Positions 1 through 11,399 of a stretch of 11,399 nt of DNA are shown here, piece after piece. Below the pieces are notes generated by a model. The model was not told where the DNA came from, ran no database searches, and was given only the letters and a program-made list of their open reading frames with translations. The stretch comes from a virus (lineage: Duplodnaviria > Heunggongvirae > Uroviricota > Caudoviricetes): IMG/VR virus record IMGVR_UViG_2645727593_000020; one strand, written 5' to 3'. Positions within the stretch are counted from its first letter, which is position 1, and every line of letters begins with the position of its first letter. A program made the translations under genes and the position numbers.

Positions 1-17
1 AACATGAGCAAACAGAC

Positions 18-46
18 AAAAAAAGGGCCAGCCAATTGGCCAGCCC
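18..46 (-). terminator. Putative rho-independent terminator for the minus-strand integrase-fragment/membrane-protein transcript
   Basis: Seen in sequence: GGGCCAGCC-AATT-GGCCAGCCC (25..46) forms an imperfect GC-rich hairpin around the palindromic core GCCAATTGGC. On the minus strand it is followed directly by a 7-nt T run (A run 18..24 on plus). It lies about 150 nt downstream of the stop of the 204..1133 ORF. Confidence 0.4.
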
Positions 47-203
47 TTCTTAACAGGATGTCGCTTAAGCGAAATCTTAGTTAAGACGCTTTTACATGAT
101 ACCATTGATAAACATGCATTTTTCATTATAAACAGTTAGTTATATGTATCACTAGTGTAGTCAAGTGCAGCCATAAACATGCTGTGTGGGCAGATTGTGG
201 ACA

Positions 204-1133
204 CTACTTATTTCCCTGTCCAATCTTACCCGCAACTGCCTCGGTAAGCTTTACTAAGGTTTCAAGTTCATTTTTGTCTAATTTTCTTGCTTCAATAATT
301 TCAGTAGTCTGCCCTGATTCTAGTTTTCCAACTCTTGAGCTAAAATTAATTTTATCCAGAAGGTCTATCATATCGATATCTTTCTGGCTAGCCATTACAA
401 GCTTTATAATGGCATAGCTTTCCTCACGTGAACGTTTTATTGCCTCGTAATAGCGAAACTCATCCATCGTAACCCGATATTGCTTCAAAAAGAAAAATGC
501 GATTAACTCCAAGAAAATCAACACGCCAAAATTAGGGAGAAGATACATTACCTTGGTTACCGCATCATCCTTAGCATCAATTACATGTGATTGAGAATAG
601 AAGAAACCTAATCCAACTATTGCAAAACAAACACCGACTAATAAATAAAGACTACCGCGAGAATATATGTTTTTCGCAAGACCTTCAGAGCTATTAATCA
701 AACCTTTAAGATAAAAATCCAGAGATTCATCTTCATCAGCAGCAGCCCTTTCCTCTTGAGCCTTCTTGAGTAGTTTTATCTCATTTATAATATCGACAAT
801 ATTAAACATCGATGATTTGTCGACTGAATCACTCCCTGTAATTCTCATAAACATTCTTTGGATTGGAGACACACCATAGATAATGGTGTAAACGATTACA
901 AATGACACTGCGAATATTGACCTGATAAAGCTCGGCAAATGTGTAAGATCTGCTCTCGCACTGGGAAATAAATAATAAAAGGTTGAGTCTAATATCCCTG
1001 TAGCAAAAATTACATTTGCAACTAGAAAGACTGCACCTATCTCAACTAAATTATAAAAACCACGAGTGCGTACCCTAATGACTTTGGCCTCGGTCATTCT
1101 TGGAGGTGTTTCGATGGTTGGCTCACTCATCAT
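204..1133 (-). CDS. Hypothetical integral membrane protein, 309 aa, four predicted transmembrane helices with an internal two-fold architecture; function unknown
   Basis: Long ORF in visibly AT-rich DNA. AGGA lies 7 nt upstream of the ATG at 1133. Hydrophobic helices at about aa 26-48, 69-88, 161-179 and 195-216; charged, helix-prone segments at aa 100-160 (KLLKKAQEERAAADEDE) and 217-309. The start overlaps the stop of the upstream integrase fragment by 11 nt. No catalytic motif recognised. Confidence 0.65.
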   Translation of the reverse strand: MMSEPTIETPPRMTEAKVIRVRTRGFYNLVEIGAVFLVANVIFATGILDSTFYYLFPSARADLTHLPSFIRSIFAVSFVIVYTIIYGVSPIQRMFMRITGSDSVDKSSMFNIVDIINEIKLLKKAQEERAAADEDESLDFYLKGLINSSEGLAKNIYSRGSLYLLVGVCFAIVGLGFFYSQSHVIDAKDDAVTKVMYLLPNFGVLIFLELIAFFFLKQYRVTMDEFRYYEAIKRSREESYAIIKLVMASQKDIDMIDLLDKINFSSRVGKLESGQTTEIIEARKLDKNELETLVKLTEAVAGKIGQGNK

Positions 1134-1464
1134 ATAATCCTGTTAAATTAGAAATAGGGTTAAGAGTTACAGCTTCTTCTAAATGATCTGGTGCAAAATG
1201 AGCGTATCTCATGGTTTCCCTAATGTTAGAATGGCCCAAGATTCGTTGCAGTACTAAAATGTTCCCACCATTCATCATAAAGTGACTCGCAAATGTATGA
1301 CGTAACACATTCGTTTTTTGCCCTTCAGCTAACTCTATATCGGTCAGAGCGAGCATTTTCTTGAACTCCTGATAGCAGGGGTGGAACATTTTTCCCTGTA
1401 AAGGAGCCAACTCGTCATATAGCCACCGAGGGATCGGTACTGTACGATTCTTCTTTCCCTTGGT
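1123..1464 (-). pseudogene. Tyrosine recombinase (phage integrase family) C-terminal fragment, 5'-truncated
   Basis: Translation ...[24 protein letters not shown]...NVLRHTFASHF...ILGHSNIRETMRYAHF... carries the C-terminal catalytic-domain landmarks of tyrosine recombinases (GKGxKxRxVPL-like patch, LRH box, GHS, RY with the presumptive nucleophilic Tyr). The N-terminal part with the box I arginine is absent. There is no ATG; the ORF track starts it at a TTG (1410). The upstream limit of homology (about 1464) is judged by eye and is approximate. Confidence 0.6.
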
Positions 1465-1473
1465 TTGGGAGAA
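1448..1473. repeat. Left recombination site of the invertible segment (gix/hix-like 12-2-12 site), hybrid in composition
   Basis: TTCTTCTTTCCC-TT-GGTTTGGGAGAA. The right half plus core is an exact inverted copy of the half-site at 3334..3347 (TTCTCCCAAACC-AA) and resembles hix/gix half-sites as recalled (TTnTCnnAAACC). The outer left half (TTCTTCTTTCCC) lacks the AAACC element. Confidence 0.55.
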
Positions 1474-1812
1474 GCGGCTAAAAGGAATGTAGGGACAGGG
1501 GCGAATCAGATACCTGATATGGGTAGCTTCACGCTTTCTGTTTCAGGTACTGGATATCAAAAATTTCCATCAGGTTTTATTCTTCAGTGGGGCTCAATCG
1601 GCGCACCAGGCATTGCACAGGATGTAGTAACCCATTTCCCGATTGCATTTCCAAACAGATGTCTGCGTGTTTTGGTCTCACAAGACTACACACCAGATAG
1701 CGGGGCTGTTGGTTATATTGCCTGTGCAGGTTTTAGTCCCGACCCGGTTAAATTTATATCCAGAGCCAGTACTCCTGGCCTCGGCGCTTCATTTTTAGCG
1801 TTAGGCTGTTAA
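1462..1812 (+). CDS. Tail-fibre C-terminal variable segment (Sv-like), no own start codon; orphaned from any constant N-terminal part in this window
   Basis: The frame is open from 1423 (a stop precedes it at 1420..1422) with no ATG before an internal Met. The translation GLGE...[15 protein letters not shown]... resembles phage fibre C-terminal domains. The frame begins exactly in the recombination-site core encoding GLGE, which the minus-strand Sv' also encodes at the right site. Confidence 0.5.
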
Positions 1813-1833
1813 TTTAGCTATATGGAGTGAAAA

Positions 1834-2274
1834 ATGAATTACATATATTCCGCGACTACAAACTCTTTCTATCCGCTGGAGATGAAAGAGGATTACACTC
1901 AAGCTGACTCATGGCCAGATGATGCTGTTGAAGTTGATGAGCAAGTGTATATTGAGTTTTCCGGATTACCGCCGAAAGGAAAAATCCGTATCGCTGGAGA
2001 AAATAGTTTTCCTGCATGGACTGAAATTCCACCACCAACACATGAGGAACAGATTGCTGCAGCCGAACTTGAAAAGCAGCAACTGATTAATCAGGCCAAC
2101 GATTATATGAACAGTAAACAATGGCCTGGTAAAGCGGCTATTGGTCGTCTGAAAGGTGAGGAACTGGCGCAATATAATTTGTGGCTGGATTATCTGGACG
2201 CACTGGAACTGGTCGATACTTCCGGTGCGCCAGATATTGAATGGCCTACGCCTCCGGCAGTTCAGGCCAGATGA
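1834..2274 (+). CDS. Tail-fibre assembly chaperone (Tfa family), 146 aa
   Basis: GGAG lies 7 nt upstream of the ATG. The C-terminus ...LVDTSGAPDIEWPTPP... matches the conserved Tfa C-terminal motif (xDTSxAPDIxWP) of lambda Tfa / Mu U / E. coli TfaE-type proteins. It lies directly downstream of the fibre variable segment. Confidence 0.8.
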   Translation: MNYIYSATTNSFYPLEMKEDYTQADSWPDDAVEVDEQVYIEFSGLPPKGKIRIAGENSFPAWTEIPPPTHEEQIAAAELEKQQLINQANDYMNSKQWPGKAAIGRLKGEELAQYNLWLDYLDALELVDTSGAPDIEWPTPPAVQAR

Positions 2275-2848
2275 CATCCGGCGCGGTGCTGGTATCTGTT
2301 GCCGTCACCGCGTCAATGTAATCCAGCGCAGCGTTAAGTCGGGCGGTTTCTGCCTGCGTCAGATTCCGTCCGGCCTGCAATTTCAGCTGAATCAGACTAA
2401 TGGAAGCCATTGCATTATCAATCAGTGACTGACGCTGTGCTTCTGCCGCGCCTACTGCGGCGCTATGCTGTGCCACAGTATCTGTTACCCATTTCTCACC
2501 ATCCCATTCATCGTATGGCGTTAACGGGGCGATAGTGGTTGTATTTTCAGGATAATCACCCGGAGCTGTGATTTCTTTCGATTCTCCTGTTTCTGTGCTA
2601 TAGATGATTTCACCGCGATGGTCTGGCACATATTCCCATGAGTTAAAATCTGCAGAACGGCAGATTGCATAACCAGCTTTATGTGTAACTGGCGCATCTA
2701 AACAAGAACATGCCGGGATACCGACGCCAACCGCAAGATATTCAGTTGACGTGGAAATATATTCCCGTGTTTCACCATCGTAGTTATAAACGGTAACATC
2801 CCCTGCCTTTGTTGCAATAAGCTCACTATTTAATATTGCTTTATGCAT
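2246..2848 (-). CDS. Tail-fibre assembly chaperone, alternative copy (Tfa'), 200 aa
   Basis: The C-terminus ...TATDTSTAPDVIWPELPEA carries the same Tfa motif. The start ATG overlaps the TGA stop of the upstream Sv' (TGATG on the minus strand at 2846..2850). The 3' end overlaps the plus-strand tfa convergently by 29 nt. Confidence 0.8.
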   Translation of the reverse strand: MHKAILNSELIATKAGDVTVYNYDGETREYISTSTEYLAVGVGIPACSCLDAPVTHKAGYAICRSADFNSWEYVPDHRGEIIYSTETGESKEITAPGDYPENTTTIAPLTPYDEWDGEKWVTDTVAQHSAAVGAAEAQRQSLIDNAMASISLIQLKLQAGRNLTQAETARLNAALDYIDAVTATDTSTAPDVIWPELPEA

Positions 2849-3345
2849 CAGGCTGACCTCACGATATAGTTAAATGCAATATTACGCGGACGCGTTTCTG
2901 AGGCTGCGGCACCTAAACCAGCCACTGATTGTTTATATGTTTTAAAGGTTCCATAATCCGGTGCTGGTAATCCGGCATCGTTTGTGTTTCCTCTTTTGAT
3001 AATGTCAGTGCCACTATTTACCCAGCTTTCATCAAAATAGAAATTAATCGTTGCATCAGTCACAATCGTGGATCTTGACGGTAATCCATGAGCATGATCC
3101 TCCGTTGCATACCCCTGAATACTTAAAATAGAGCGACCTGTATCAATCCCCCGTCCGTCATCCCAGCCACGAATAAACTCACCACGTAAATCAGGCAATT
3201 TATTTGCCGGATAAGCCTTTGCCAGTTCCGGGTATTCTTCAGCAGAAAAAGCTGCACCATTGCATTTCAGCCAGCCTGTTGGCGGTGTGGCTGAAGGCCA
3301 CGGAACAGGGACGCCAACAGGTAATGCAGAGCCTTCTCCCAAACC
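2848..3345 (-). CDS. Tail-fibre C-terminal variable segment, alternative copy (Sv')
   Basis: The translation ...VGLGEGSALPVGVPVPWPS...YPELAKAYPANKLPDLRGEFIRGWDDGRGID... is typical of Mu S / P1 S-type fibre C-terminal domains. The ORF-track N-terminus (3346..3444) runs through the recombination site into the invertase start region and is not counted as fibre. The real coding part begins at the crossover (GLGE at 3334..3345). Confidence 0.6.
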   Translation of the reverse strand, partial: GLGEGSALPVGVPVPWPSATPPTGWLKCNGAAFSAEEYPELAKAYPANKLPDLRGEFIRGWDDGRGIDTGRSILSIQGYATEDHAHGLPSRSTIVTDATINFYFDESWVNSGTDIIKRGNTNDAGLPAPDYGTFKTYKQSVAGLGAAASETRPRNIAFNYIVRSA

Positions 3346-3359
3346 AACGTTTAAGAAAA
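3334..3359. repeat. Right recombination site of the invertible segment (gix/hix-like)
   Basis: TTCTCCCAAACC-AA-CGTTTAAGAAAA: two imperfectly inverted 12-bp half-sites around a 2-bp core. It shares 14 bp (TTGGTTTGGGAGAA on the opposite strand) in inverted orientation with 1460..1473. It sits about 55 bp upstream of the invertase start. Confidence 0.6.
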
Positions 3360-3413
3360 TGTAGTTTTCCCCCCTAGCTGGCATCATTTGGGCTTTTGCA
3401 TGAGGGAAAACAA

Positions 3414-3992
3414 ATGCAGGTTGGCTATGTGCGCGTATCAACAAATGAACAAAATACCGCGCTACAGCGTGACGCGCTGGAACGGTCGGGATGTGAGCTA
3501 ATTTTCGAGGATAAAATCAGCGGTAAATCGACAAACAGGCCAAGGTTAAATCGCGCACTCAGGCAACTTAATGCCGGTGATACTCTCGTTGTCTGGAAGC
3601 TCGACAGGCTCGGGCGTAGCATGCGCCATCTTGTCTCTATGACTGAAGAGCTTCGCCAGCGAGGGGTTAATTTCAGAAGCCTGACCGACAGTATTGATAC
3701 CTCAACCCCGATGGGGCGATTTTTCTTTCACATCATGGGCGCTCTTGCAGAAATGGAACGCGAGTTAATCGTCGAACGAACCCGCGCCGGGCTGGATGCA
3801 GCCCGGGCACAAGGCAGGATCGGAGGTCGTAGGCCGAAGCTGACGCCTGATGAATGGGCTCAGGCTGGCCGGTTGATTGCGGCCGGAGAATCCCGACAGC
3901 GTGTTGCACTGATTTTTGATGTGGGCATATCGACGCTGTATAAAAAATTTCCGGCGACAAATCCCGTTGTGTCAGCCACCGGCGAACCCTGA
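3414..3992 (+). CDS. Serine-recombinase DNA invertase (Hin/Gin/Cin/Pin family), 192 aa
   Basis: From ATG 3414 (GAGGG 6-7 nt upstream): MQVGYVRVSTNEQNTALQRDAL...GDTLVVWKLDRLGRSMRHL...RSLTDSIDT...MGRFFFHIMGALAEMERELIVERTRAGL...GRIGGRRPKLT...STLYKK. It has the active-site Ser near position 10, the resolvase catalytic core and a C-terminal helix-turn-helix, colinear with Gin/Hin. The ORF-track start at 3396 is 6 codons longer and less likely. Confidence 0.9.
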   Translation: MQVGYVRVSTNEQNTALQRDALERSGCELIFEDKISGKSTNRPRLNRALRQLNAGDTLVVWKLDRLGRSMRHLVSMTEELRQRGVNFRSLTDSIDTSTPMGRFFFHIMGALAEMERELIVERTRAGLDAARAQGRIGGRRPKLTPDEWAQAGRLIAAGESRQRVALIFDVGISTLYKKFPATNPVVSATGEP

Positions 3993-3994
3993 CA
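3970..3994 (+). promoter_or_regulatory. Perfect 6-bp dyad TGTCAG-N13-CTGACA straddling the invertase stop; candidate activator site for an FI late promoter
   Basis: Seen in sequence. The dyad centre (about 3982) lies roughly 50 bp upstream of a possible -10-like CAATAT (4022..4027) ahead of FI. The spacing does not match the TGT-N12-ACA Ogr-site consensus as recalled, so this is tentative. Confidence 0.2.
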
Positions 3995-4056
3995 AATAGC
4001 CGCATACAGGCGTAAACCAGACAATATCACTCACCTCAACTAACGGAGTTAAACGG

Positions 4057-5244
4057 ATGAGTGATTATCATCACGGTGTCGAGGTCGTCGAAATTAACGA
4101 CGGCACCCGCACAATCTCGACGGTATCAACGGCGGTCGTTGGCATGGTCTGCACAGCCAGTGATGCTGACGCCGGGGCTTTCCCTCTCAATGAGCCGGTG
4201 CTGATTACCAACCCACAAAGCGCCATCGCAAAAGCCGGTACTAAAGGTACCCTGGCAAAATCCTTACAGCTCATCGCTAACCAGTCAAAACCGGTTGTCG
4301 TTGTTGTGCGTGTCGCGGAGGGTACCGGCGACGGCGAAGAGGCACAGGCGCAAACCATTTCTAACATCATCGGCACCACGAATGAGAATGGCAAATATAC
4401 CGGGATGAAAGCGCTGTTAACGGCGAAAGCGGTCACCGGCGTGAAGCCACGTATTCTCGGTGTGCCGGGGCTCGATACTCAGGAGGTGGCGACCGCGCTT
4501 GTCTCCGTGGCTCAGAAGCTGCGCGCTTTCGCCTATGTCAGCGCGTGGGGCTGTAAAACCATTGCTGACGTTATCGCCTACCGCGAAAACTTCAGCGCCC
4601 GTGAGCTCATGATTATCTGGCCTGACTTCCTCGGGTGGGATACCACGGCCAACGCGACCACAACCAGTTATGCAACAGCGATCGCGTTGGGACTGCGCGC
4701 AAAAATCGACAATGATACAGGCTGGCATAAAACCCTGTCAAACGTCGGCATCAATGGCGTCACCGGTATCAGTGCGTCGGTCTTCTGGGATTTGCAGGAA
4801 TCTGGCACTGATGCCGACCTGCTGAATGAGGCCGGTGTTACGACGCTGATTCGTGCCGATGGTTTCCGCTTCTGGGGTAACCGTAATTGCTCCGATGACC
4901 CGCTGTTTCAGTTTGAGAACTACACCCGCACCGCACAGGTCATAGCCGACACAATAGCCGAGGGGCATATGTGGGCGAACGATAAGCCCATCACCGCGAC
5001 GTTGATTCGCGACATTATCGACGGCATCAACGCGAAATTCCGCGAGCTGAAAACCGGCGGTTACATCATCGATGCGACGTGCTGGTTTGACGAAGAGGCC
5101 AACAGTAAAGAAACCCTGAAAGCCGGGAAACTGTTTATCGATTATGACTATACGCCGGTGCCGCCACTCGAACACCTGACCTTACGCCAGCGCATTACTG
5201 ATAAATATCTGGCGAATCTTATCTCGTCCGTCAACAGCAAATAA
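4057..5244 (+). CDS. FI: Contractile tail sheath protein (P2 gpFI homolog), 395 aa
   Basis: The N-terminus MSDYHHGVEVVEINDGTRTISTVSTAVVGMVCTASDAD... and the rest are colinear with P2 gpFI as recalled (about 396 aa). GGAG lies 8 nt upstream of the ATG. Confidence 0.95.
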   Translation: MSDYHHGVEVVEINDGTRTISTVSTAVVGMVCTASDADAGAFPLNEPVLITNPQSAIAKAGTKGTLAKSLQLIANQSKPVVVVVRVAEGTGDGEEAQAQTISNIIGTTNENGKYTGMKALLTAKAVTGVKPRILGVPGLDTQEVATALVSVAQKLRAFAYVSAWGCKTIADVIAYRENFSARELMIIWPDFLGWDTTANATTTSYATAIALGLRAKIDNDTGWHKTLSNVGINGVTGISASVFWDLQESGTDADLLNEAGVTTLIRADGFRFWGNRNCSDDPLFQFENYTRTAQVIADTIAEGHMWANDKPITATLIRDIIDGINAKFRELKTGGYIIDATCWFDEEANSKETLKAGKLFIDYDYTPVPPLEHLTLRQRITDKYLANLISSVNSK

Positions 5245-5256
5245 GGAGCCTGACAA

Positions 5257-5775
5257 ATGGCATTACCGCGCAAGCTCAAACTCATGAACCTGTTTATCGA
5301 TGGGGTGAGTTATCTCGGCGTCGTGCAGTCCGTCACGCTGCCGAAATTAACCCGCAAGCTCGAGAACTATCGCGGCGGCGGGATGAATGGTTCGGCACCG
5401 GTCGACCTCGGCCTCGATGACGATGCGCTGTCGGCTGAAATCTCTCTCGGCGGCTTCCCCGATGACGCTATCTGGTCGTTATACGCTGCCACCGGCGCGG
5501 CCTCCGTACCGCTACGTTTTGCCGGGTCTTACCAGCGTGATGACACCGGCGAGACCGTGCCGGTTGAGGTTGTTCTCCGTGGCCGTCAGAAAGAAATCGA
5601 CCTCGGTGAAGCCAAACAGGGCGAAGACACCGAGTCGAAAATCGCTCTCGCGTGTACCTATTTCAAGCTGACGATGAATGGCTCGGAACTGGTGGAAATC
5701 GACACCGTGAACCTCATCGAAAAAGTGAACGGCACCGACATGCTCGAGGCGCACCGACAAAATATCGGCCTGTAA
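5257..5775 (+). CDS. FII: Tail tube protein (P2 gpFII homolog), 172 aa
   Basis: MALPRKLKLMNLFIDGVSYLGVVQSVTLPKLTRKLENYRGGGMNG... matches the P2 tube protein in sequence and length. AGGAG lies upstream; it sits directly downstream of FI. Confidence 0.95.
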   Translation: MALPRKLKLMNLFIDGVSYLGVVQSVTLPKLTRKLENYRGGGMNGSAPVDLGLDDDALSAEISLGGFPDDAIWSLYAATGAASVPLRFAGSYQRDDTGETVPVEVVLRGRQKEIDLGEAKQGEDTESKIALACTYFKLTMNGSELVEIDTVNLIEKVNGTDMLEAHRQNIGL

Positions 5776-5778
5776 TTT

Positions 5779-5808
5779 ATGCCCCGGTCAGCATGGCTGG
5801 CCGGGCAT
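5779..5808 (+). other. GC-rich stem-loop in the FII-E intergenic region (possible partial terminator or RNA-stability element)
   Basis: ATGCCCCGGTCAGC-ATG-GCTGGCCGGGCAT forms a stem of about 13 bp with one bulge and one mismatch. No U tract follows on the plus strand, so it is not a classic intrinsic terminator. Confidence 0.35.
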
Positions 5809-5837
5809 CCTGAAACCAGAATTTAACGAGAAATATC

Positions 5838-6110
5838 ATGGATAAAACTAACGAAAATATCGTCACTCTGATTAAACCCATTAAGCGCGGTGAGCAGGTT
5901 ATTACCGACGTCACCCTGTTAAAACCGTGTGCCGGAACCCTTCGCGGTGTCAGCCTGGCATCAGTCGCAAACTCTGACGTCGATGCGCTGATTAAAGTGC
6001 TGCCGCGCATGACCATGCCGTCGCTGACCGAGCAGGAAGCCGCCGCACTGGAGCTGCCCGACCTGCTGTCGTTTGCCGGTAAGGTGGTCGGTTTTTTGTC
6101 ACCGAGTTAG
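5838..6110 (+). CDS. E: Tail assembly chaperone (P2 gpE homolog), 90 aa
   Basis: Conserved position between the tube and tape-measure genes, small size, and a C-terminus ending on a slippery run (…VVGFLSPS*). Confidence 0.85.
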   Translation: MDKTNENIVTLIKPIKRGEQVITDVTLLKPCAGTLRGVSLASVANSDVDALIKVLPRMTMPSLTEQEAAALELPDLLSFAGKVVGFLSPS

Positions 6111-6271
6111 GCGGCGTAATCTTCCCGCAAAAACTCACGGTCGATGACCTGATGGCTGACATAGCGGTAATTTTCCACTGGTCGCCATCAGACCTGTATC
6201 CCATGAGCCTGACCGAACTCGTCAACTGGCGCGAAAAAGCGCTACAGCGAAGCGGAAACACGAATGAGTAA
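5838..6271 (+). CDS. E+E': Tail assembly chaperone frameshift product (P2 gpE+E' homolog), about 144 aa, made by a programmed -1 frameshift
   Basis: After a -1 slip at T_TTT_TTG (6092..6098) the frame stays open to the TAA at 6269..6271, adding VTELGGVIFPQKLTVDDLMADIAVIFHWSPSDLYPMSLTELVNWREKALQRSGNTNE. The end overlaps the T start (ATG 6264). This is the conserved myovirus/siphovirus chaperone arrangement (lambda G/GT, P2 E/E+E'). Confidence 0.75.
6092..6098 (+). promoter_or_regulatory. -1 programmed ribosomal frameshift slippery heptamer T_TTT_TTG
   Basis: X_XXY_YYZ heptamer in the E zero frame, 4 codons before the E stop. The -1 frame downstream is open for 57 codons. Confidence 0.7.
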
Positions 6272-8693
6272 TAACCTCAAACTCGAAGTGCTGCTGAAAG
6301 CTGTCGACCAGGCGACCCGACCCTTTAAAGCGATCCAGACGGCGAGCAAATCGCTGTCTGGCGATATCCGCACGACTCAGCAATCCCTGCGTGATTTGAA
6401 TGGTCAGGCATCGAAAATCGACGGTTTTCGCAAAACCAGCGCACAACTGGCGGTAACCGGACAGGCACTGGAAAAGGCAAAACAGGAAGCCGCCGAGCTG
6501 GCGGTGCAGTTTAAAAACACGGAACGGCCAACGGCGGCACAGGCCAGAGTGCTGGAATCAGCAAAGCGTTCGGCTGAAGGGTTACAGGCAAAATATAACA
6601 GCCTCACCCAATCGGTGAAGCGGCAACAGACCGAGCTCGGCAAAGCGGGGATTAATACGCGCAATCTGTCGAATGATGAAAGCCGCCTGAAAAACTCTAT
6701 CAATGAAACTACCGCACAACTTAACCGCCAGCGTGAAGCACTGGCGCGGGTCAGCGCGCAACAGGCAAAACTCAGCGCAGTACAAAAACGCTATCAGGCA
6801 GGAAAGGCACTGGCTGGAAATGCGGCATCGATGGGCGCTGCCGGGATAGGCATGGCAACGACCGGAGCGCTTGCCGGTGTTGCACTGATGAAGCCCGGTT
6901 ATGATTTTGCTCAGAAAAACTCTGAGTTACAGGCCGTTCTCGGTGTCGGTAAAGACTCAGCTGATATGGTGGCGCTCCGCAAACAGGCGCGCCAGCTCGG
7001 TGACAACACCGCCGCGTCGGCTGATGATGCTGCCGGTGCTCAGATTATTATTGCAAAGGCTGGCGGCGATGCTGCGGCTATTCAGGCCGCTACCCCCGTA
7101 ACACTCGATATGGCGCTCGCAAACCGTCGAACGATGGAAGAGAACGCCGGGTTATTGATGGGGATGCGCTCTGCCTTCCAGCTTTCAAACGATAAGGTCG
7201 CCCATATCGGTGATGTTCTGTCGATGACGATGAACAAAACCGCCGCCGACTTTGACGGCCTGAGTGATGCGCTGACTTATGCCGCGCCGGTGGCGAAAAA
7301 TGCCGGGGTCAGCATCGAAGAAACAGCCGCAATGGTCGGCGCACTGCATGACGCCAAAATTACGGGATCGATGGCGGGTACGGGGAGCCGTGCCGTATTA
7401 AGTCGCCTGCAGGCTCCAACGGGCAAAGCGTATGACGCCATTAAAGAGCTCGGCGTCAAAACGGCTGATGGTAAGGGGAACACACGTCCAATATTTACCA
7501 TCCTGAAAGAAATGCAGCGGAGTTTTGATAAAAACAACCTCGGCACCGGCCAGCGTGCCGAATATATGAAAACCATTTTCGGTGAAGAGGCCAGCTCGTC
7601 GGCTGCGGTACTCATGACCGCTGCCTCGAGCGGGAAATTAGACCAGCTTACCGCTTCCCTTAAAGCATCGGATGGCAAAACCGCTGAGCTGGTGAAGGTC
7701 ATGCAGGATAACCTCGGCGGCGATTTTAAAGAGTTTCAGTCTGCGTATGAAGCGGTAGGAACCGACCTGTTTGACCAGCAAGAGTCATCATTAAGAAAGC
7801 TGGTACAAACGACGACAGGGTATGTATTGAGGCTCGATAGCTGGATCCAAAAGAACAAATCTCTTGCCACCACGCTGGGTGTCATTACGGCGGCAGCTGT
7901 CGGTATTGTGGGGATGATTGGTGCCATTGGCCTTGTATCGTGGCCGGTAATTACTGGCATTAACGCCATCATTTCGGCGGCTGGTGCGCTTGGTGCGGTC
8001 TTTACGACAATCAGTGGCGGGGTCATTGCGGCTATTGGTGCTATTACGTGGCCTGTCGTGGCGGTAGCGGCGGCTGTTGTCGCTGGCGCGCTGCTTATCC
8101 GTAAATACTGGGAGCCTGTCAGCGCATTCTTTGCCGGTGTGGTCGAGGGGCTCATGAGTGCCTTTGCGCCGGTCGGGGAAATGTTCGCCCCGCTGGCACC
8201 CATTTTCGACGGTCTCGGCGAAAAACTTCGCGGCGTCTGGCAGTGGTTTAAAGACCTGATAGCGCCGGTGAAAGCGACTCAGGACACGCTCAACAGTTGT
8301 CGTGATGTTGGGGTTATGTTCGGTCAGACGCTGGCCGATGCACTGCTGATGCCGCTTAACGCCTTTAACAAGCTGCGAAGCGGGATTGACTGGGTGCTCG
8401 AAAAACTCGGCATTATCAACAAAGAATCCAGCTCACTTGACCAGACTGCGGCGAAAGCCAATGCAGCGACGCAGAACGGTTACAGCCCGGCAATCAGCGC
8501 ATACAACAGCTATCAGCCGGTCACGGCACCCGCCGGTAAAACCTACATCGACCAGAGTCGGCCAATCTATCAAATCACCGTGCCGGGCAATGGTATGCCG
8601 GGAGATCGGTTGGGTAATGATTTGCAGGATGCATTAGAAAAGTATGAGCGCGAGAAGCGCGCCAAAGCCCGCGCAAGCATGATGCATGACTAA
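6264..8693 (+). CDS. T: Tail tape measure protein (P2 gpT homolog), 809 aa
   Basis: Size and position match P2 gpT. The N-terminal half is helical and coiled-coil-like, followed by a Gly/Ala-rich hydrophobic stretch (about aa 530-610). The start overlaps the E+E' stop. Confidence 0.9.
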   Translation: MSNNLKLEVLLKAVDQATRPFKAIQTASKSLSGDIRTTQQSLRDLNGQASKIDGFRKTSAQLAVTGQALEKAKQEAAELAVQFKNTERPTAAQARVLESAKRSAEGLQAKYNSLTQSVKRQQTELGKAGINTRNLSNDESRLKNSINETTAQLNRQREALARVSAQQAKLSAVQKRYQAGKALAGNAASMGAAGIGMATTGALAGVALMKPGYDFAQKNSELQAVLGVGKDSADMVALRKQARQLGDNTAASADDAAGAQIIIAKAGGDAAAIQAATPVTLDMALANRRTMEENAGLLMGMRSAFQLSNDKVAHIGDVLSMTMNKTAADFDGLSDALTYAAPVAKNAGVSIEETAAMVGALHDAKITGSMAGTGSRAVLSRLQAPTGKAYDAIKELGVKTADGKGNTRPIFTILKEMQRSFDKNNLGTGQRAEYMKTIFGEEASSSAAVLMTAASSGKLDQLTASLKASDGKTAELVKVMQDNLGGDFKEFQSAYEAVGTDLFDQQESSLRKLVQTTTGYVLRLDSWIQKNKSLATTLGVITAAAVGIVGMIGAIGLVSWPVITGINAIISAAGALGAVFTTISGGVIAAIGAITWPVVAVAAAVVAGALLIRKYWEPVSAFFAGVVEGLMSAFAPVGEMFAPLAPIFDGLGEKLRGVWQWFKDLIAPVKATQDTLNSCRDVGVMFGQTLADALLMPLNAFNKLRSGIDWVLEKLGIINKESSSLDQTAAKANAATQNGYSPAISAYNSYQPVTAPAGKTYIDQSRPIYQITVPGNGMPGDRLGNDLQDALEKYEREKRAKARASMMHD

Positions 8694-8704
8694 GGAGACT
8701 GATT

Positions 8705-9169
8705 ATGATGCTGGCATTAGGTATGTTTGTTTTTATGCGTCAGACGCTGCCCTACCAGAGCATGCAGCGCAGCGCGGATTATAGCTGGGCGTCAAACTCT
8801 CGCATCGGGAAGCGTGACGCTTTTCAGTATCTCGGCGAGGGGGAAGATAAAATCACCCTGAGCGGTGACCTGTATCCTGAGCTGACCGGCGGTAAGCTCA
8901 CGATGCTGGCGCTTTATGCAATGGCTGAACAGGGGCGCGCATGGCCGCTTATCTCTGGCTCAGGCTGGATTTACGGGATGTTTGTTGTCAGTAATGTCTC
9001 GGAGACCGGCACGGTATTTTTTGAGGATGGGACGCCACGAAAAATCAGCTTCACCCTGTCACTGACCCGTGTCGATGAGTCGCTCGCCGCGGTGTATGGC
9101 GATATTGGAAAACAGGCCGAAAGTCTGGTCGGGAAAGCTGGCGATCTGCTGTCGATGGTGGGGGCGTAA
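8705..9169 (+). CDS. U: Tail protein gpU homolog, 154 aa
   Basis: AGGAG lies upstream of the ATG. The translation MMLALGMFVFMRQTLPYQSMQRS...LYPELTGG... resembles the P2 gpU family; position between T and D. Confidence 0.9.
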   Translation: MMLALGMFVFMRQTLPYQSMQRSADYSWASNSRIGKRDAFQYLGEGEDKITLSGDLYPELTGGKLTMLALYAMAEQGRAWPLISGSGWIYGMFVVSNVSETGTVFFEDGTPRKISFTLSLTRVDESLAAVYGDIGKQAESLVGKAGDLLSMVGA

Positions 9170-9171
9170 TC

Positions 9172-10344
9172 ATGCTGGATATTATCACCGGCGCGGGTGC
9201 CACGCTGACGCCCGACTTTATGCTGACACTGGAAAGCAAAGATATCACCGGCAATATCAGTGACCGGCTGATTAACCTCTCGATGACGGACAATCGGGGT
9301 TTTGAGGCCGACCAGCTCTACATCGAGCTCGACGATACTGACGGTCTGGTCGCATTGCCGATTCGCGGTGCGGTGCTGTCGCTGTATCTCGGGTGGAAAG
9401 GTTTCTCTCTGGTCAGCAAGGGGCGATTTACCGTCGATGAGGTAGAGCACCGGGGGGCGCCGGATACGGTAACCATTCGCGCCCGGGGTGCGGATTTTCG
9501 CGGGACGCTTAATTCCCGTCGTGAGGAGTCATGGCATGACACCACGCTCGGCGCAATCGTCAGCTCGATAGCTGAGCGGAACAAGTTAACGGCCAGCGTC
9601 ACTGATTCTCTTGCGGGGATCCAGATTCCGCATATCGACCAGTCTCAGGAATCCGACGCCGTTTTCCTGACTCGCCTCGCAGAACGCAACGGCGGTGCGG
9701 TCTCAGTGAAAGCGGGTAGATTGCTGATGCTCAAAGCGGGAAGCGGTACCACTGCCAGTGGAAAAGCTATTCCTCAAATTACCATCCAGCGCGGTGACGG
9801 TGACCGGCATCAGTTTGCCATTGCCGACCGTGGCGCTTACACCGGCGTAACCGCTAAGTGGCTGCACACTAAAGACCCGAAACCGGCGAAACAAAAGCAG
9901 ACAGTGAAGCTGAAACGTAAGCCCAAAGAGCAACACCTCCGGGCGCTACAGCACCCGAAAGCAAAACCAGTGAGCAGTAAAGTCACGGCCAAAAAGCAAA
10001 AAGAGCAGGAAGCCCGCGAGGGTGAATACATGGCCGGTGAGGCTGACAACGTTTTCGCGCTGACGACCATTTACGCGACAAAGGCGCAAGCGATGCGTGC
10101 AGCTCAGGCGAAGTGGGATAAATTGCAGCGTGGGGTTGCGGAGTTCTCCATTATGTTAGCGACCGGCCGCGAGGATATTTACCCCGAAACGCCGGTCAGG
10201 GTCTCAGGCTTTAAGAGCGTTATAGACGAGCAAGCATGGATAATCAGCAGGGTGACCCATAATCTCGGTGGGAATGGCTTCACAACGGCTGTAGAGCTTG
10301 AGGTGATGCTTTCGGATGTAGAATATGACACCGACGAATCTTGA
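9172..10344 (+). CDS. D: Tail protein gpD homolog (late control D family), 390 aa
   Basis: The start overlaps the U stop (TAATCATG). Size and sequence are consistent with P2 gpD; it is followed by ogr as in P2. Confidence 0.9.
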   Translation: MLDIITGAGATLTPDFMLTLESKDITGNISDRLINLSMTDNRGFEADQLYIELDDTDGLVALPIRGAVLSLYLGWKGFSLVSKGRFTVDEVEHRGAPDTVTIRARGADFRGTLNSRREESWHDTTLGAIVSSIAERNKLTASVTDSLAGIQIPHIDQSQESDAVFLTRLAERNGGAVSVKAGRLLMLKAGSGTTASGKAIPQITIQRGDGDRHQFAIADRGAYTGVTAKWLHTKDPKPAKQKQTVKLKRKPKEQHLRALQHPKAKPVSSKVTAKKQKEQEAREGEYMAGEADNVFALTTIYATKAQAMRAAQAKWDKLQRGVAEFSIMLATGREDIYPETPVRVSGFKSVIDEQAWIISRVTHNLGGNGFTTAVELEVMLSDVEYDTDES

Positions 10345-10359
10345 TTATACAAACAAAAC

Positions 10360-10387
10360 TTGCAAATGTAAGATTCAAGTTTATTAT
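10360..10387 (+). promoter_or_regulatory. Putative sigma70 promoter for ogr (-35 TTGCAA 10360..10365, -10 TATTAT 10382..10387, 16-bp spacer)
   Basis: Hexamers read directly from the sequence in the D-ogr intergenic region, about 35 bp upstream of the ogr start. P2 ogr is known to have its own promoter. Confidence 0.4.
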
Positions 10388-10420
10388 CCCCCTCAAGTCA
10401 GCAAGGAGAGGGAAGAAATT

Positions 10421-10639
10421 ATGATGCACTGCCCGCTATGTCAGGATGCAGCACACGCACGATCAAGCCGGTACCTGAGCACTGAAACGAAAGAGCGCTA
10501 CCACCAGTGCCAGAACATCAACTGCGGTTGCACTTTCGTCACCCACGAGAGCCTTGCTCGTTTTATCGTGAAGCCAGGAGAAATTGAACCCGCCCCACCC
10601 CACCCGTCTAAATACCAACAACATCAGCTCTGGCTTTAA
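10421..10639 (+). CDS. ogr: Zinc-finger late-gene transcriptional activator Ogr, 72-73 aa
   Basis: MMHCPLCQDAAHARSSRYLSTETKERYHQCQNINCGCTFVTHE...IVKPGE... has the CxxC...CxxxxC zinc-binding pattern of P2 Ogr / P4 Delta. The start is at ATG 10421 or 10424, preceded by AAGGAGAGGGAAG. The 104-aa ORF-track version (from 10325) overlaps the D 3' end and is rejected as the real start. Confidence 0.85.
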   Translation: MMHCPLCQDAAHARSSRYLSTETKERYHQCQNINCGCTFVTHESLARFIVKPGEIEPAPPHPSKYQQHQLWL

Positions 10640-10643
10640 ATCA

Positions 10644-10664
10644 AAGGCCTGCTTTGCAGGCCTT
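10644..10664. terminator. Bidirectional stem-loop terminator shared by ogr (+) and the convergent minus-strand ORF
   Basis: AAGGCCTGC-TTT-GCAGGCCTT is a perfect 9-bp stem with a 3-nt loop. It is followed by CTTGTAT on the plus strand and by a T-rich stretch on the minus strand. It lies between the ogr stop (10639) and the minus-ORF stop (10677..10679). Confidence 0.55.
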
Positions 10665-10676
10665 CTTGTATCAAAC

Positions 10677-11399
10677 TTAGATTGGTAATGAAAAAGCTAT
10701 CGCCTTGCAGATATGTTGCTTTGTTAACGCAGGATGTGTTGAAGCAAAAAGCGATAAAAAGCTTTTAGCTTCAACCGAATCATCATTAAGCGAAATATTA
10801 TCTTTGATGAATGGATGAAGTGCGATTCCAGCGCTCATAGATAACGGCACATAGTTGATGAATATATCTTCTTTTGTGAGACCTAGCTGGTTTGCTTGTG
10901 CTTCAAATGAATTAGCATCTAAATAATCACGTATACGTTCTTTGGCCTCTGGTCGGAGTCTCGATTCTTGACGCGGCAGAGAAAGCATCTTATCAATATC
11001 TCCCCATGAGATAGGAACCTCAAAATAGCCACCACCTTCTTCCTCTGGAGGTGCCGGGAAATTCACATAAAAATAGTTTTTTTGCTGTGTAGGGTCGTTC
11101 ATGGACTGACGATGATAGTTATAAATACTTCTAATACGGTTGGCCTTGTTATGATGCCGAGCATTTCGAATAACAAGCATCATTAATAATTCAGGTTTCA
11201 AATACCAGTCAGGCTCTAATCCATTGCTTTGCATGTTGTCATACAAATTATGAAAAGCATTAAGTTGTGTATTCAGGCCCGATTCTAAATTGCCAATTGC
11301 TTCAGCACGATCAATAGCCAACAAACGCTGTAGTGACCAGTTAGACTCTAATAAAACCCGAAAGGCCTGTGCAAGATCTTCAAAAGAGTGGGAAAGCAT
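10677..11399 (-). CDS. Hypothetical protein, at least 240 aa, AT-rich accessory gene; 5' end may extend beyond the window
   Basis: Long minus-strand ORF running to the window edge in visibly AT-rich DNA, convergent to ogr. Contains an R-x4-H patch (VIRNARHH, aa 78-83) of the type seen in HEPN-like nuclease folds, and an acidic/Gly patch PPEEEGGG. No confident family assignment. Confidence 0.5.
   Translation of the reverse strand: MLSHSFEDLAQAFRVLLESNWSLQRLLAIDRAEAIGNLESGLNTQLNAFHNLYDNMQSNGLEPDWYLKPELLMMLVIRNARHHNKANRIRSIYNYHRQSMNDPTQQKNYFYVNFPAPPEEEGGGYFEVPISWGDIDKMLSLPRQESRLRPEAKERIRDYLDANSFEAQANQLGLTKEDIFINYVPLSMSAGIALHPFIKDNISLNDDSVEAKSFLSLFASTHPALTKQHICKAIAFSLPI

Follow-up and report, generated by a model that had tools for sequence, protein, structure and literature searches.

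The closest described relatives of the locus studied here are the Din-family fibre switches, namely those of Mu (G/Gin), P1 (C/Cin), e14 (P/Pin) and the EC958 P2-like prophages. Serine invertases make 2-base-pair (bp) staggered cuts at the centre of their sites and exchange half-sites (PMC4817059), and the secondary crossover sites used by Cin are chosen by their central dinucleotide (Iida & Hiestand-Nauer 1987 as cited in PMC4134206; Arber interview PMC4270481). The window, by which we mean the whole 11,399-nucleotide stretch of the IMG/VR virus record IMGVR_UViG_2645727593_000020 (Caudoviricetes), carries a switch which resembles this family in its adjoining serine invertase (70-plus % identical to Gin), its 26-bp site with a 2-bp AA/TT core, its mirror-image cassettes and its demonstrated flipping. 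Unlike the described switches, it has lost the late promoter region together with the 5' portion of the fibre gene that stays constant, one of its two sites is a hybrid with a single good half-site, and the resident invertase carries the substitution G44R. We report that the left crossover site of this switch is the scar of a large deletion in a P2/186-like prophage, probably made by an invertase acting at a secondary site in the integrase gene (int).

The left crossover site and the undeleted prophage

Positions 1-1474 and 1460-3347 of the window are 100% identical to the chromosome of the enteropathogenic E. coli O127:H6 E2348/69 (NC_011601.1), and positions 3333-11399 show 99.96% identity to it, with 3 single-nucleotide polymorphisms. 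Judged by these matches, the window is a P2/186-like prophage remnant of E2348/69 (11.5 kb) integrated at the 3' end of rplS, with yfiB on one side and rplS on the other. The two crossover sites and the segment that they bound are as follows.

1448..1473, hybrid left crossover site, defined by three-way base alignment, half-site scores and an inverted repeat.
3334..3359, intact right crossover site, TTCTCCCAAACC-AA-CGTTTAAGAAAA, 30.7 bits; from its first base to the start codon of the invertase there are 80 bp.
1460..3347, invertible segment (1,888 bp); NC_011601.1 and three further complete assemblies carry it with 100% identity, but turned around with respect to the flanks.

The hybrid left site reads TTCTTCTTTCCC-TT-GGTTTGGGAGAA, in which the outer half (1448-1459) is integrase coding sequence, the core occupies 1460-1461 and the inner half (1462-1473) belongs to the fibre switch. 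Its origin was mapped by aligning the window with the intact integrase gene and the intact fibre site of undeleted relatives. In this three-way alignment the integrase gene reads TTCTTCTTTCCC TT CGTTTTAGTGAA, the window TTCTTCTTTCCC TT GGTTTGGGAGAA and the fibre site TTCTCAAAAACC TT GGTTTAGGAGAA; over a longer stretch the corresponding sequences are GATTCTTCTTTCCC-TT-CGTTTTAGTGAAAG for the integrase gene, GATTCTTCTTTCCC-TT-GGTTTGGGAGAAG for the window and GGTTCTCAAAAACC-TT-GGTTTAGGAGAAG for the intact fibre site. The window matches the integrase gene up to 1461 and the fibre site from 1458, which places the breakpoint within CCTT (1458-1461), the 2-bp crossover core TT included. The exchange of half-sites is exact at the core: the left half of the integrase sequence, TT and the inner half of the fibre site follow each other with no base gained or lost. 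Both parental cores are TT on the same strand, i.e. in direct orientation, and this is the arrangement which yields a deletion and the hybrid.

These results are in agreement with a preliminary description made from the letters of the window, which had placed the breakpoint of a deletion or fusion at the invertase crossover and had described the inner half-site plus core as an exact inverted copy of the right site and the outer half-site as degenerate and coding for integrase (GKKN). The core and inner half-site indeed form a perfect 15-nucleotide inverted repeat, 1460-1474 / 3333-3347, of which about 0.003 would be expected by chance in 2.3 kb by our estimate. The inner half scores +17.4 bits; the outer half, TTCTTCTTTCCC, scores -1.8 bits, compared with 13-17 bits for true half-sites, and intact relatives carry a different sequence, TTCTCAAAAACC, in its place. 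The integrase homology had been said to run into the left site: it reaches T-K-G-K-K-N, with the Thr codon at 1462-1464, and thus does not end before 1448. Copies of the right site, identical or nearly so and at the same distance from the invertase gene, are present in dozens of relatives.

In the genomes of E. coli strain 1190 (NZ_CP023386.1) and PCN033, this position of the chromosome is occupied by the undeleted form of the prophage. In strain 1190 the prophage is about 32.6 kb long and holds a full P2/186 gene set, including the regulators CI and CII. From rplS, the order is open reading frame (ORF) ORF240, an Ogr-type regulator, the genes from late control D through the tail sheath, the invertase, the switch and the fibre gene H; past H come the genes for the baseplate, lysis, the head and replication, and then CII, CI, int, ORF309 and yfiB. 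Window positions 1-1466 show 99.7% identity to the 3' part of the intact integrase gene and the downstream ORF of 13 other E. coli genomes. On the fibre and tail side, the identity with strain 1190 is 95.8% for 1458-2898 and 99.7% for 3140-11399. The window is collinear with the strain 1190 prophage except for 21,073 bp lying between a sequence in int, called here the quasi-site, and the left fibre site. The difference is one 21,073-bp deletion, which extends from codon 232 of the integrase back through cI, the replication, head, lysis and baseplate genes and the first ~200 codons of H.

One scenario of the preliminary description was that a prophage had lost about 20 kb, beginning in the 5' part of int and including the constant region of the fibre gene; the undeleted prophage of strain 1190 confirms it. 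The fibre reading frame had also been reported to have a stop at 1420..1422 and no constant region upstream. A TAG codon is present there in the frame of the first cassette, the next start codon being TTG at 1465, and the DNA upstream of the cassettes is antisense integrase. No constant 5' fibre part which either cassette could complete was found in the window: positions 1-1466 are the 3' part of the integrase gene and the ORF downstream of it, and the N-terminal fibre domain Phage_tail_fib of Pfam, detected in the H protein of the intact relative, is absent from the window.

Among 17 complete E. coli genomes with this integrase allele, the gene is full-length in 13 and truncated in 4, all of the latter of the O127:H6 E2348/69 type. 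A scan with the 24-nucleotide hybrid junction returned a single draft contig from IMG/VR (L003, UViG_2600254997_000017) and no match from the JGI metagenomes, and the deletion therefore appears confined to the E2348/69 lineage.

Two features of the reference prophage should be mentioned. The replication endonuclease gene of strain 1190 (L002 28825-31047) bears a pseudogene flag on account of an internal stop, and a DUF4062 cargo gene lies between baseplate gene V and a virion morphogenesis gene (L002 16277-17620). The "intact" prophage of strain 1190 may therefore itself be non-inducible.

Origin of the deletion

The integrase end of the deletion is a natural quasi-site, TTCTTCTTTCCC-TT-CGTTTTAGTGAA, lying within the codons for T-K-T-K-G-K-K-N. 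To score it, 80 IMG/VR loci were fetched with the invertase protein, and the site located about 80 bp upstream of the invertase was identified together with its inverted partner; 30 distinct half-sites from 19 IMG/VR loci unrelated to the junction were used for a half-site matrix, the consensus of which is TTCTCnnAAAC[C/G]. In a scan of the intact prophage (32.5 kb), the true sites obtained 34.0 and 30.7 bits and the int quasi-site 7.8 bits, its right half, read as TTCACTAAAACG, reaching 9.7 bits with 11/12 consensus positions. The quasi-site is 3rd among the 4,694 positions with an AA/TT core, after both true sites, and 9th of 32,500 overall. When only the outer five positions of each half are counted, which cannot add to microhomology at the junction, it falls in the top 0.19%; among the 83 positions with CCTT in the same register and polarity, it is the best bar the genuine left fibre site. 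By this scoring the int quasi-site is the best compatible candidate secondary site in the phage. A quasi-site with a shared central dinucleotide matches the secondary-site behaviour of Cin, and this agreement was counted in favour of an invertase.

On these comparisons, a deletion catalysed by an invertase at a secondary site is the probable origin of the hybrid and is favoured over chance microhomology joining. That the ends were joined by the invertase and not by general repair is likewise what we infer, as a favoured, unproven reading. The ends of the deletion lie at the crossover cores of two sites, the genuine left fibre site and the int quasi-site. The serine invertase would have made 2-bp staggered cuts at both TT cores and exchanged the half-sites, and the intervening DNA would have been excised as a circle. 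The hybrid site 1448-1473, with the integrase outer half, the core and the fibre inner half, would have been left behind. With one perfect half-site and a correct core, this hybrid still recombines with the intact right site, and the 1,888-bp segment continues to flip, although no known fibre gene remains for it to complete. Its flipping is apparently slower than that of the intact switches which the cell also carries, and the poor half-site may be the cause.

Several points weigh against this origin. The quasi-site has a poor left half (-1.8 bits), and its total of 7.8 bits is far under the 31-34 bits of the true sites. Enhancer-dependent invertases of wild type have a strong preference for inversion, with inverted sites in cis; efficient deletion across directly oriented sites is on record for hyperactive mutants (PMC4817059), and a wild-type enzyme would therefore make such a deletion only rarely. 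The reciprocal product, which would have been excised, is not observable, and the resident invertase is substituted at an invariant glycine and may be impaired. Moreover, a single event in a single lineage is concerned, the 4 complete genomes with the truncated gene being all of one type. Finally, the junction shows a microhomology of 4 bp exact, and of 8/9 over CCTTsGTTT, which homology-independent illegitimate recombination could use; given this microhomology, the outer positions of the quasi-site add a support of only ~1 in 82.

This last point is the basis of the rival which survives best, an illegitimate joining by replication slippage or end joining of the CCTT of int to the central CCTT of the fibre site, in which no invertase took part or in which a double-strand break made by the invertase at the fibre site was sealed to int by general repair. 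The length of the match at the junction suits such a joining, with 83 positions of the prophage having CCTT in the same register and polarity its partners would not be rare, and it does not call for a deletion that wild-type invertases disfavour. Against it, one end has hit, in an element of 32.5 kb, just the 2-bp core of a 26-bp site, and the other falls, in exact register and polarity, on the quasi-site ranked 3rd of 4,694 and 9th of 32,500, with a similarity extending to the outer half-site positions (top 0.19%) which are irrelevant to microhomology. We consider this joining unlikely.

A two-step route by the invertase would lead to an identical end product and is less probable still: first the int quasi-site would recombine with the right site and invert ~23 kb, and then a deletion would take place between the second hybrid and the genuine left site, by that time in direct orientation. 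The partners of the first step are inverted relative to each other, which corresponds to the preferred reaction of these enzymes, and the enhancer would lie next to the right site. When we follow the half-sites of these sequences through both steps, the left hybrid comes out just as it is observed, together with a normal right site. The route is less parsimonious because a deletion between direct sites is still required, with one of the sites a hybrid, and the large-inversion intermediate was found in 0/13 genomes with an intact integrase gene, all of which run past 1461 into the integrase. An A/G polymorphism of the inner half-site was considered as a means to discriminate between one and two steps and was dropped, the segment allele being only 95.8% identical to that of strain 1190.

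The preliminary description had offered an alternative, in which a separate AT-rich integrative element, bringing an integrase of its own, had become joined to the fibre switch, and it had placed at the junction a change from AT-rich to phage-like composition. The guanine plus cytosine (GC) content does rise along the window, from 35-40% below ~1200 to 45-47% at 1200-1800, reaching 55% only past ~3500; the rise is gradual rather than sharp at 1460. The lower GC content left of ~1200 would suit a foreign element, against which the intact relative is decisive: in strain 1190 the same integrase (99.7% nucleotide identity) and ORF309 lie beside cI, within the same rplS/yfiB attachment (att) boundaries. 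As intact relatives carry the AT-rich integrase gene together with ORF309 in one and the same prophage, the change in GC content is no mark of foreign DNA and the separate element is refuted, with a negligible probability left to it. Equally negligible is an assembly artefact in which contigs were mis-joined at the repeat: invertible segments can mislead assemblers (PMC4134206), against which the same junction occurs in 4 independent complete assemblies and 1 draft, the inverted repeat is just 15 nucleotides long and the inversion was seen by paired reads in four colonies.

Inversion, the resident invertase and the neighbouring genes

The question whether the segment still inverts had been raised in the preliminary description, and the answer is positive: both orientations are found among near-identical genomes and, according to Table S1 of Goldberg et al. 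2014 (PMC4272514), within single-colony cultures. That table lists NC_011601.1 2977580-2979467 as phase-variable, which is window 1460-3347 exactly, with the same inverted repeat as found here bar one dropped base. Four single-colony cultures showed the reference (forward) orientation at 93 +/- 4%, a 93:7 mixture, and the same source gives 51% for e14 and 60% for a Mu-like locus. The orientation of the window is thus the minority one (about 7%) in E2348/69 cultures, and the independent draft contig L003 has the segment in the window's orientation. The 93:7 ratio, set against the e14 and Mu-like values, and assemblies fixed in differing orientations suggest slow switching with founder effects. 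With equation 2 of PMC4272514 (c = 0.07, 30 generations), the rate would be ~2-3 x 10^-3 inversions per generation.

The right site of L003 shows a variant of its own. Three adjacent substitutions, TTT -> GGA, lie in its outer half (L003 3346-3350, corresponding to window 3350-3352) and lower the score of this half from 13.3 to -4.3 bits. They create GGGAAAGAA, a 9-mer shared with the reverse complement of the left outer half, and L003 has in addition a 1-nucleotide deletion in a C run (window 3369). The TTT -> GGA variant is absent from all complete E. coli genomes checked; an error of the draft assembly, a mutation copied from a template and a change that locks the switch are all conceivable origins.

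The segment, the invertase and the integrase remnant contain the following genes.

1465..1812, plus strand, fibre C-terminal cassette A with a gp53-like C-terminal domain (Pfam Gp53-like_C, E = 9e-15; translation).
1834..2274, plus strand, tail fibre assembly gene of cassette A (Pfam Caudo_TAP, E = 3e-37).
2246..2848, minus strand, tail fibre assembly gene of cassette B (Pfam Caudo_TAP, E = 3e-31).
2848..3345, minus strand, fibre C-terminal cassette B with a tail collar domain (Pfam Collar, E = 1e-14).
3414..3992, plus strand, full-length serine DNA invertase of the Gin/Pin/Cin/Hin group, 192 amino acids (Pfam Resolvase and HTH_7).
1123..1464, minus strand, 3' fragment of a tyrosine integrase gene, 113 codons, residues 233-345 of 345.

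As in other Din switches, the segment holds two opposed cassettes, each with a fibre C-terminus and an assembly gene. The H gene of strain 1190 (319 amino acids) is collinear in its 3' part with cassette A; the late-gene region upstream of the fibre cassettes was removed with the deletion. A promoter and terminator scan of 1-4100 gave promoter counts at or below shuffle expectation, none suggestively placed for the orphan cassettes or for int'-ORF309. RefSeq calls both orphan cassettes complete, as "gp53-like domain-containing protein" and "phage tail protein" (E2348C_RS27370, E2348C_RS15470; L001 8961-9353, 10389-10883). One of these calls begins immediately beyond the repeat on the right and the other within that on the left, and they therefore depend on the orientation of the assembly, an annotation artefact of a type against which the EC958 paper warns (PMC4134206).

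The identity of the invertase is clear from its Pfam matches (Resolvase, E = 3e-50; HTH_7, E = 9e-13) and from its match to the Gin structure 3UJ3 (E = 1.5e-85, residues 1-183), in which YVRVST is aligned to the active-site region of Gin. It is identical to the strain 1190 invertase at 191/192 positions, residue 44 being the sole difference. At codon 3543-3545 (AGG), the window encodes RPRL. The motif is RPGL in strain 1190, in 79/80 IMG/VR relatives and in Gin, and its Gly is shared by gamma-delta resolvase at the aligned position (RKGL). By the catalytic residues of resolvases, RPGL stands two residues after a catalytic arginine; this conserved catalytic-core motif is absent from the window's invertase, and G44R is specific to the deletion-bearing lineage. 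The substitution may cripple or alter the enzyme. Since the gene is full length, the Fis-enhancer region located in the 5' part of Din-family invertase genes is predicted to be present.

E2348/69 has other invertase genes as well. A second full-length invertase, 72% identical and with RPGL, is encoded at 1.894 Mb, and a Mu-like prophage has the invertase gene adjoining its own invertible fibre segment cut to ~31 codons at the prophage end beside eutC (NC_011601.1 about 2751380-2751560; L083 3380-3560). That Mu-like locus flips 60:40 according to the table of PMC4272514 cited above; it must therefore be inverted in trans, and trans-catalysis already operates in E2348/69. Because the resident invertase carries G44R, the flipping of the window's segment may also be catalysed in trans. 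Both the deletion and the present flipping may be due to either enzyme, the resident one with G44R or that of the 1.89-Mb locus. A much more speculative reading, to which we give little credence, is that G44R is more than plain decay and relaxes the selectivity for site or topology, that such a natural deletion-competent variant excised two thirds of its own prophage at a quasi-site and that the surviving one-and-a-half-site switch was retained for an effect of its orientation on neighbouring genes. Read-through into the promoterless int'-ORF309 unit could be such an effect, and all that speaks for this reading is that G44R and the deletion occur together in a single lineage. If true, it would be the case of an invertase domesticating its own prophage.

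The integrase fragment is identical to residues 233-345 of the strain 1190 integrase at 112/113 positions by BLASTP and covers only model positions 111-170/172 of Pfam Phage_integrase. RefSeq annotates it as a pseudogene without N-terminus, and as the N-terminal domain and most of the catalytic domain are missing, the gene is dead. The other features of the window are listed below.

77..90, att core on the yfiB side, TTAGTTAAGACGCT, reverse complement of AGCGTCTTAACTAA (the last 14 nucleotides of rplS, stop codon included).
204..1133, minus strand, ORF309, prophage cargo gene (ORF listing; also annotated in the intact prophage, as WP_001294850.1).
4057..10639, plus strand, P2/186-type tail module, from the tail sheath through late control D to the Ogr-type regulator (ORFs, RefSeq products).
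10677-11399, minus strand, ORF240, AT-rich, beyond the Ogr-type regulator gene.

From left to right, the remnant thus comprises the att core, ORF309 (minus strand), the int 3' fragment (minus strand), the invertible fibre segment, the serine invertase, the P2-type tail module and the Ogr-type regulator. The longest exact direct repeat between both prophage-host junctions of E2348/69 has 14 nucleotides (window 77-90; L001 730-743), and positions 1-93 match rplS-adjacent DNA of prophage-free E. coli genomes. The layout is that of a P2/186-like phage, with a P2-type order of tail genes, an Ogr-type regulator close to one att site and the integrase gene at the opposite end with its 3' end toward the host junction. 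RefSeq products of the tail module in E2348/69 and strain 1190 are tail sheath, tail tube, tail assembly protein/GpE, tape measure, phage tail protein, late control D and a DNA-binding regulator, which we take to be the P2 genes FI, FII, E, T, U, D and ogr.

ORF309 overlaps the integrase stop codon by 11 nucleotides. In the intact phage it follows int in an apparent cI-int-ORF309 unit, of which everything upstream is lost in the window. The AT-rich genes ORF309 and ORF240 occupy the two att-proximal ends of the prophage and are both conserved in intact relatives; they look like cargo expressed in the lysogen. ORF309 had no Pfam or PADLOC match and was related only to phrog_5157, of unknown function; searched for a defence function, neither ORF309 nor ORF240 gave a credible match in PADLOC or Pfam.

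Comparison with described systems

Part of these observations is already known, since the flipping of the locus has been published and recombination at secondary sites by such invertases is an established laboratory observation. No new kind of system is present, all the components being of known kinds. As far as could be checked, three aspects are undescribed: that the left site of this published locus is the scar of a deletion by which the switch became fused to int, that the far end of the deletion is the best quasi-site of the phage, and that inversion with one good half-site occurs in nature. The 1980s record of this side reaction concerns selected laboratory constructs only, and the window offers a natural chromosomal case, resolved to 4 bp, of an invertase very probably acting at a secondary site. 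In one step a prophage was inactivated and its tail module and switch were spared. The continued flipping indicates that one good half-site and the right core are enough for inversion in vivo, a data point on the site requirements of invertases. The deletion also explains the annotation of two "intact" fibre proteins which are orphan C-terminal cassettes and the heterogeneity of the E2348/69 locus in sequencing data.

The same segment, with the same coordinates and inverted repeat, is the E2348/69 'P2' locus of Goldberg et al. 2014. In the table and text which deal with it, the locus is treated as an ordinary two-state fibre switch, with no mention of the missing constant region, the integrase fusion or the origin of the deletion. 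Element e14 of E. coli K-12 is similar as a decayed prophage whose fibre switch is still inverting in culture (pinE, P segment; PMC4272514). It is unlike the window in that inversion still fuses a cassette to an upstream ORF (ycfK-stfE), in the longer repeat of 21 nucleotides shared by both its sites and in its ~51:49 ratio, compared with 93:7 here.

The closest parallel to the deletion itself is the action of Cin at quasi-cix sites (Iida & Hiestand-Nauer 1986/1987; Arber; see the accounts cited above), where a genuine site recombines with a weakly similar sequence sharing its central dinucleotide and the fusion falls at the core. In the window too, the two sequences share an identical core in exact register and are partly similar beyond it. 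Whereas the quasi-cix events were selected on laboratory plasmids and in phage P1, the window has a fixed natural chromosomal deletion and not an inversion; here we infer the dependence on an invertase, two thirds of the prophage were removed, and the resulting hybrid is still an inversion site.

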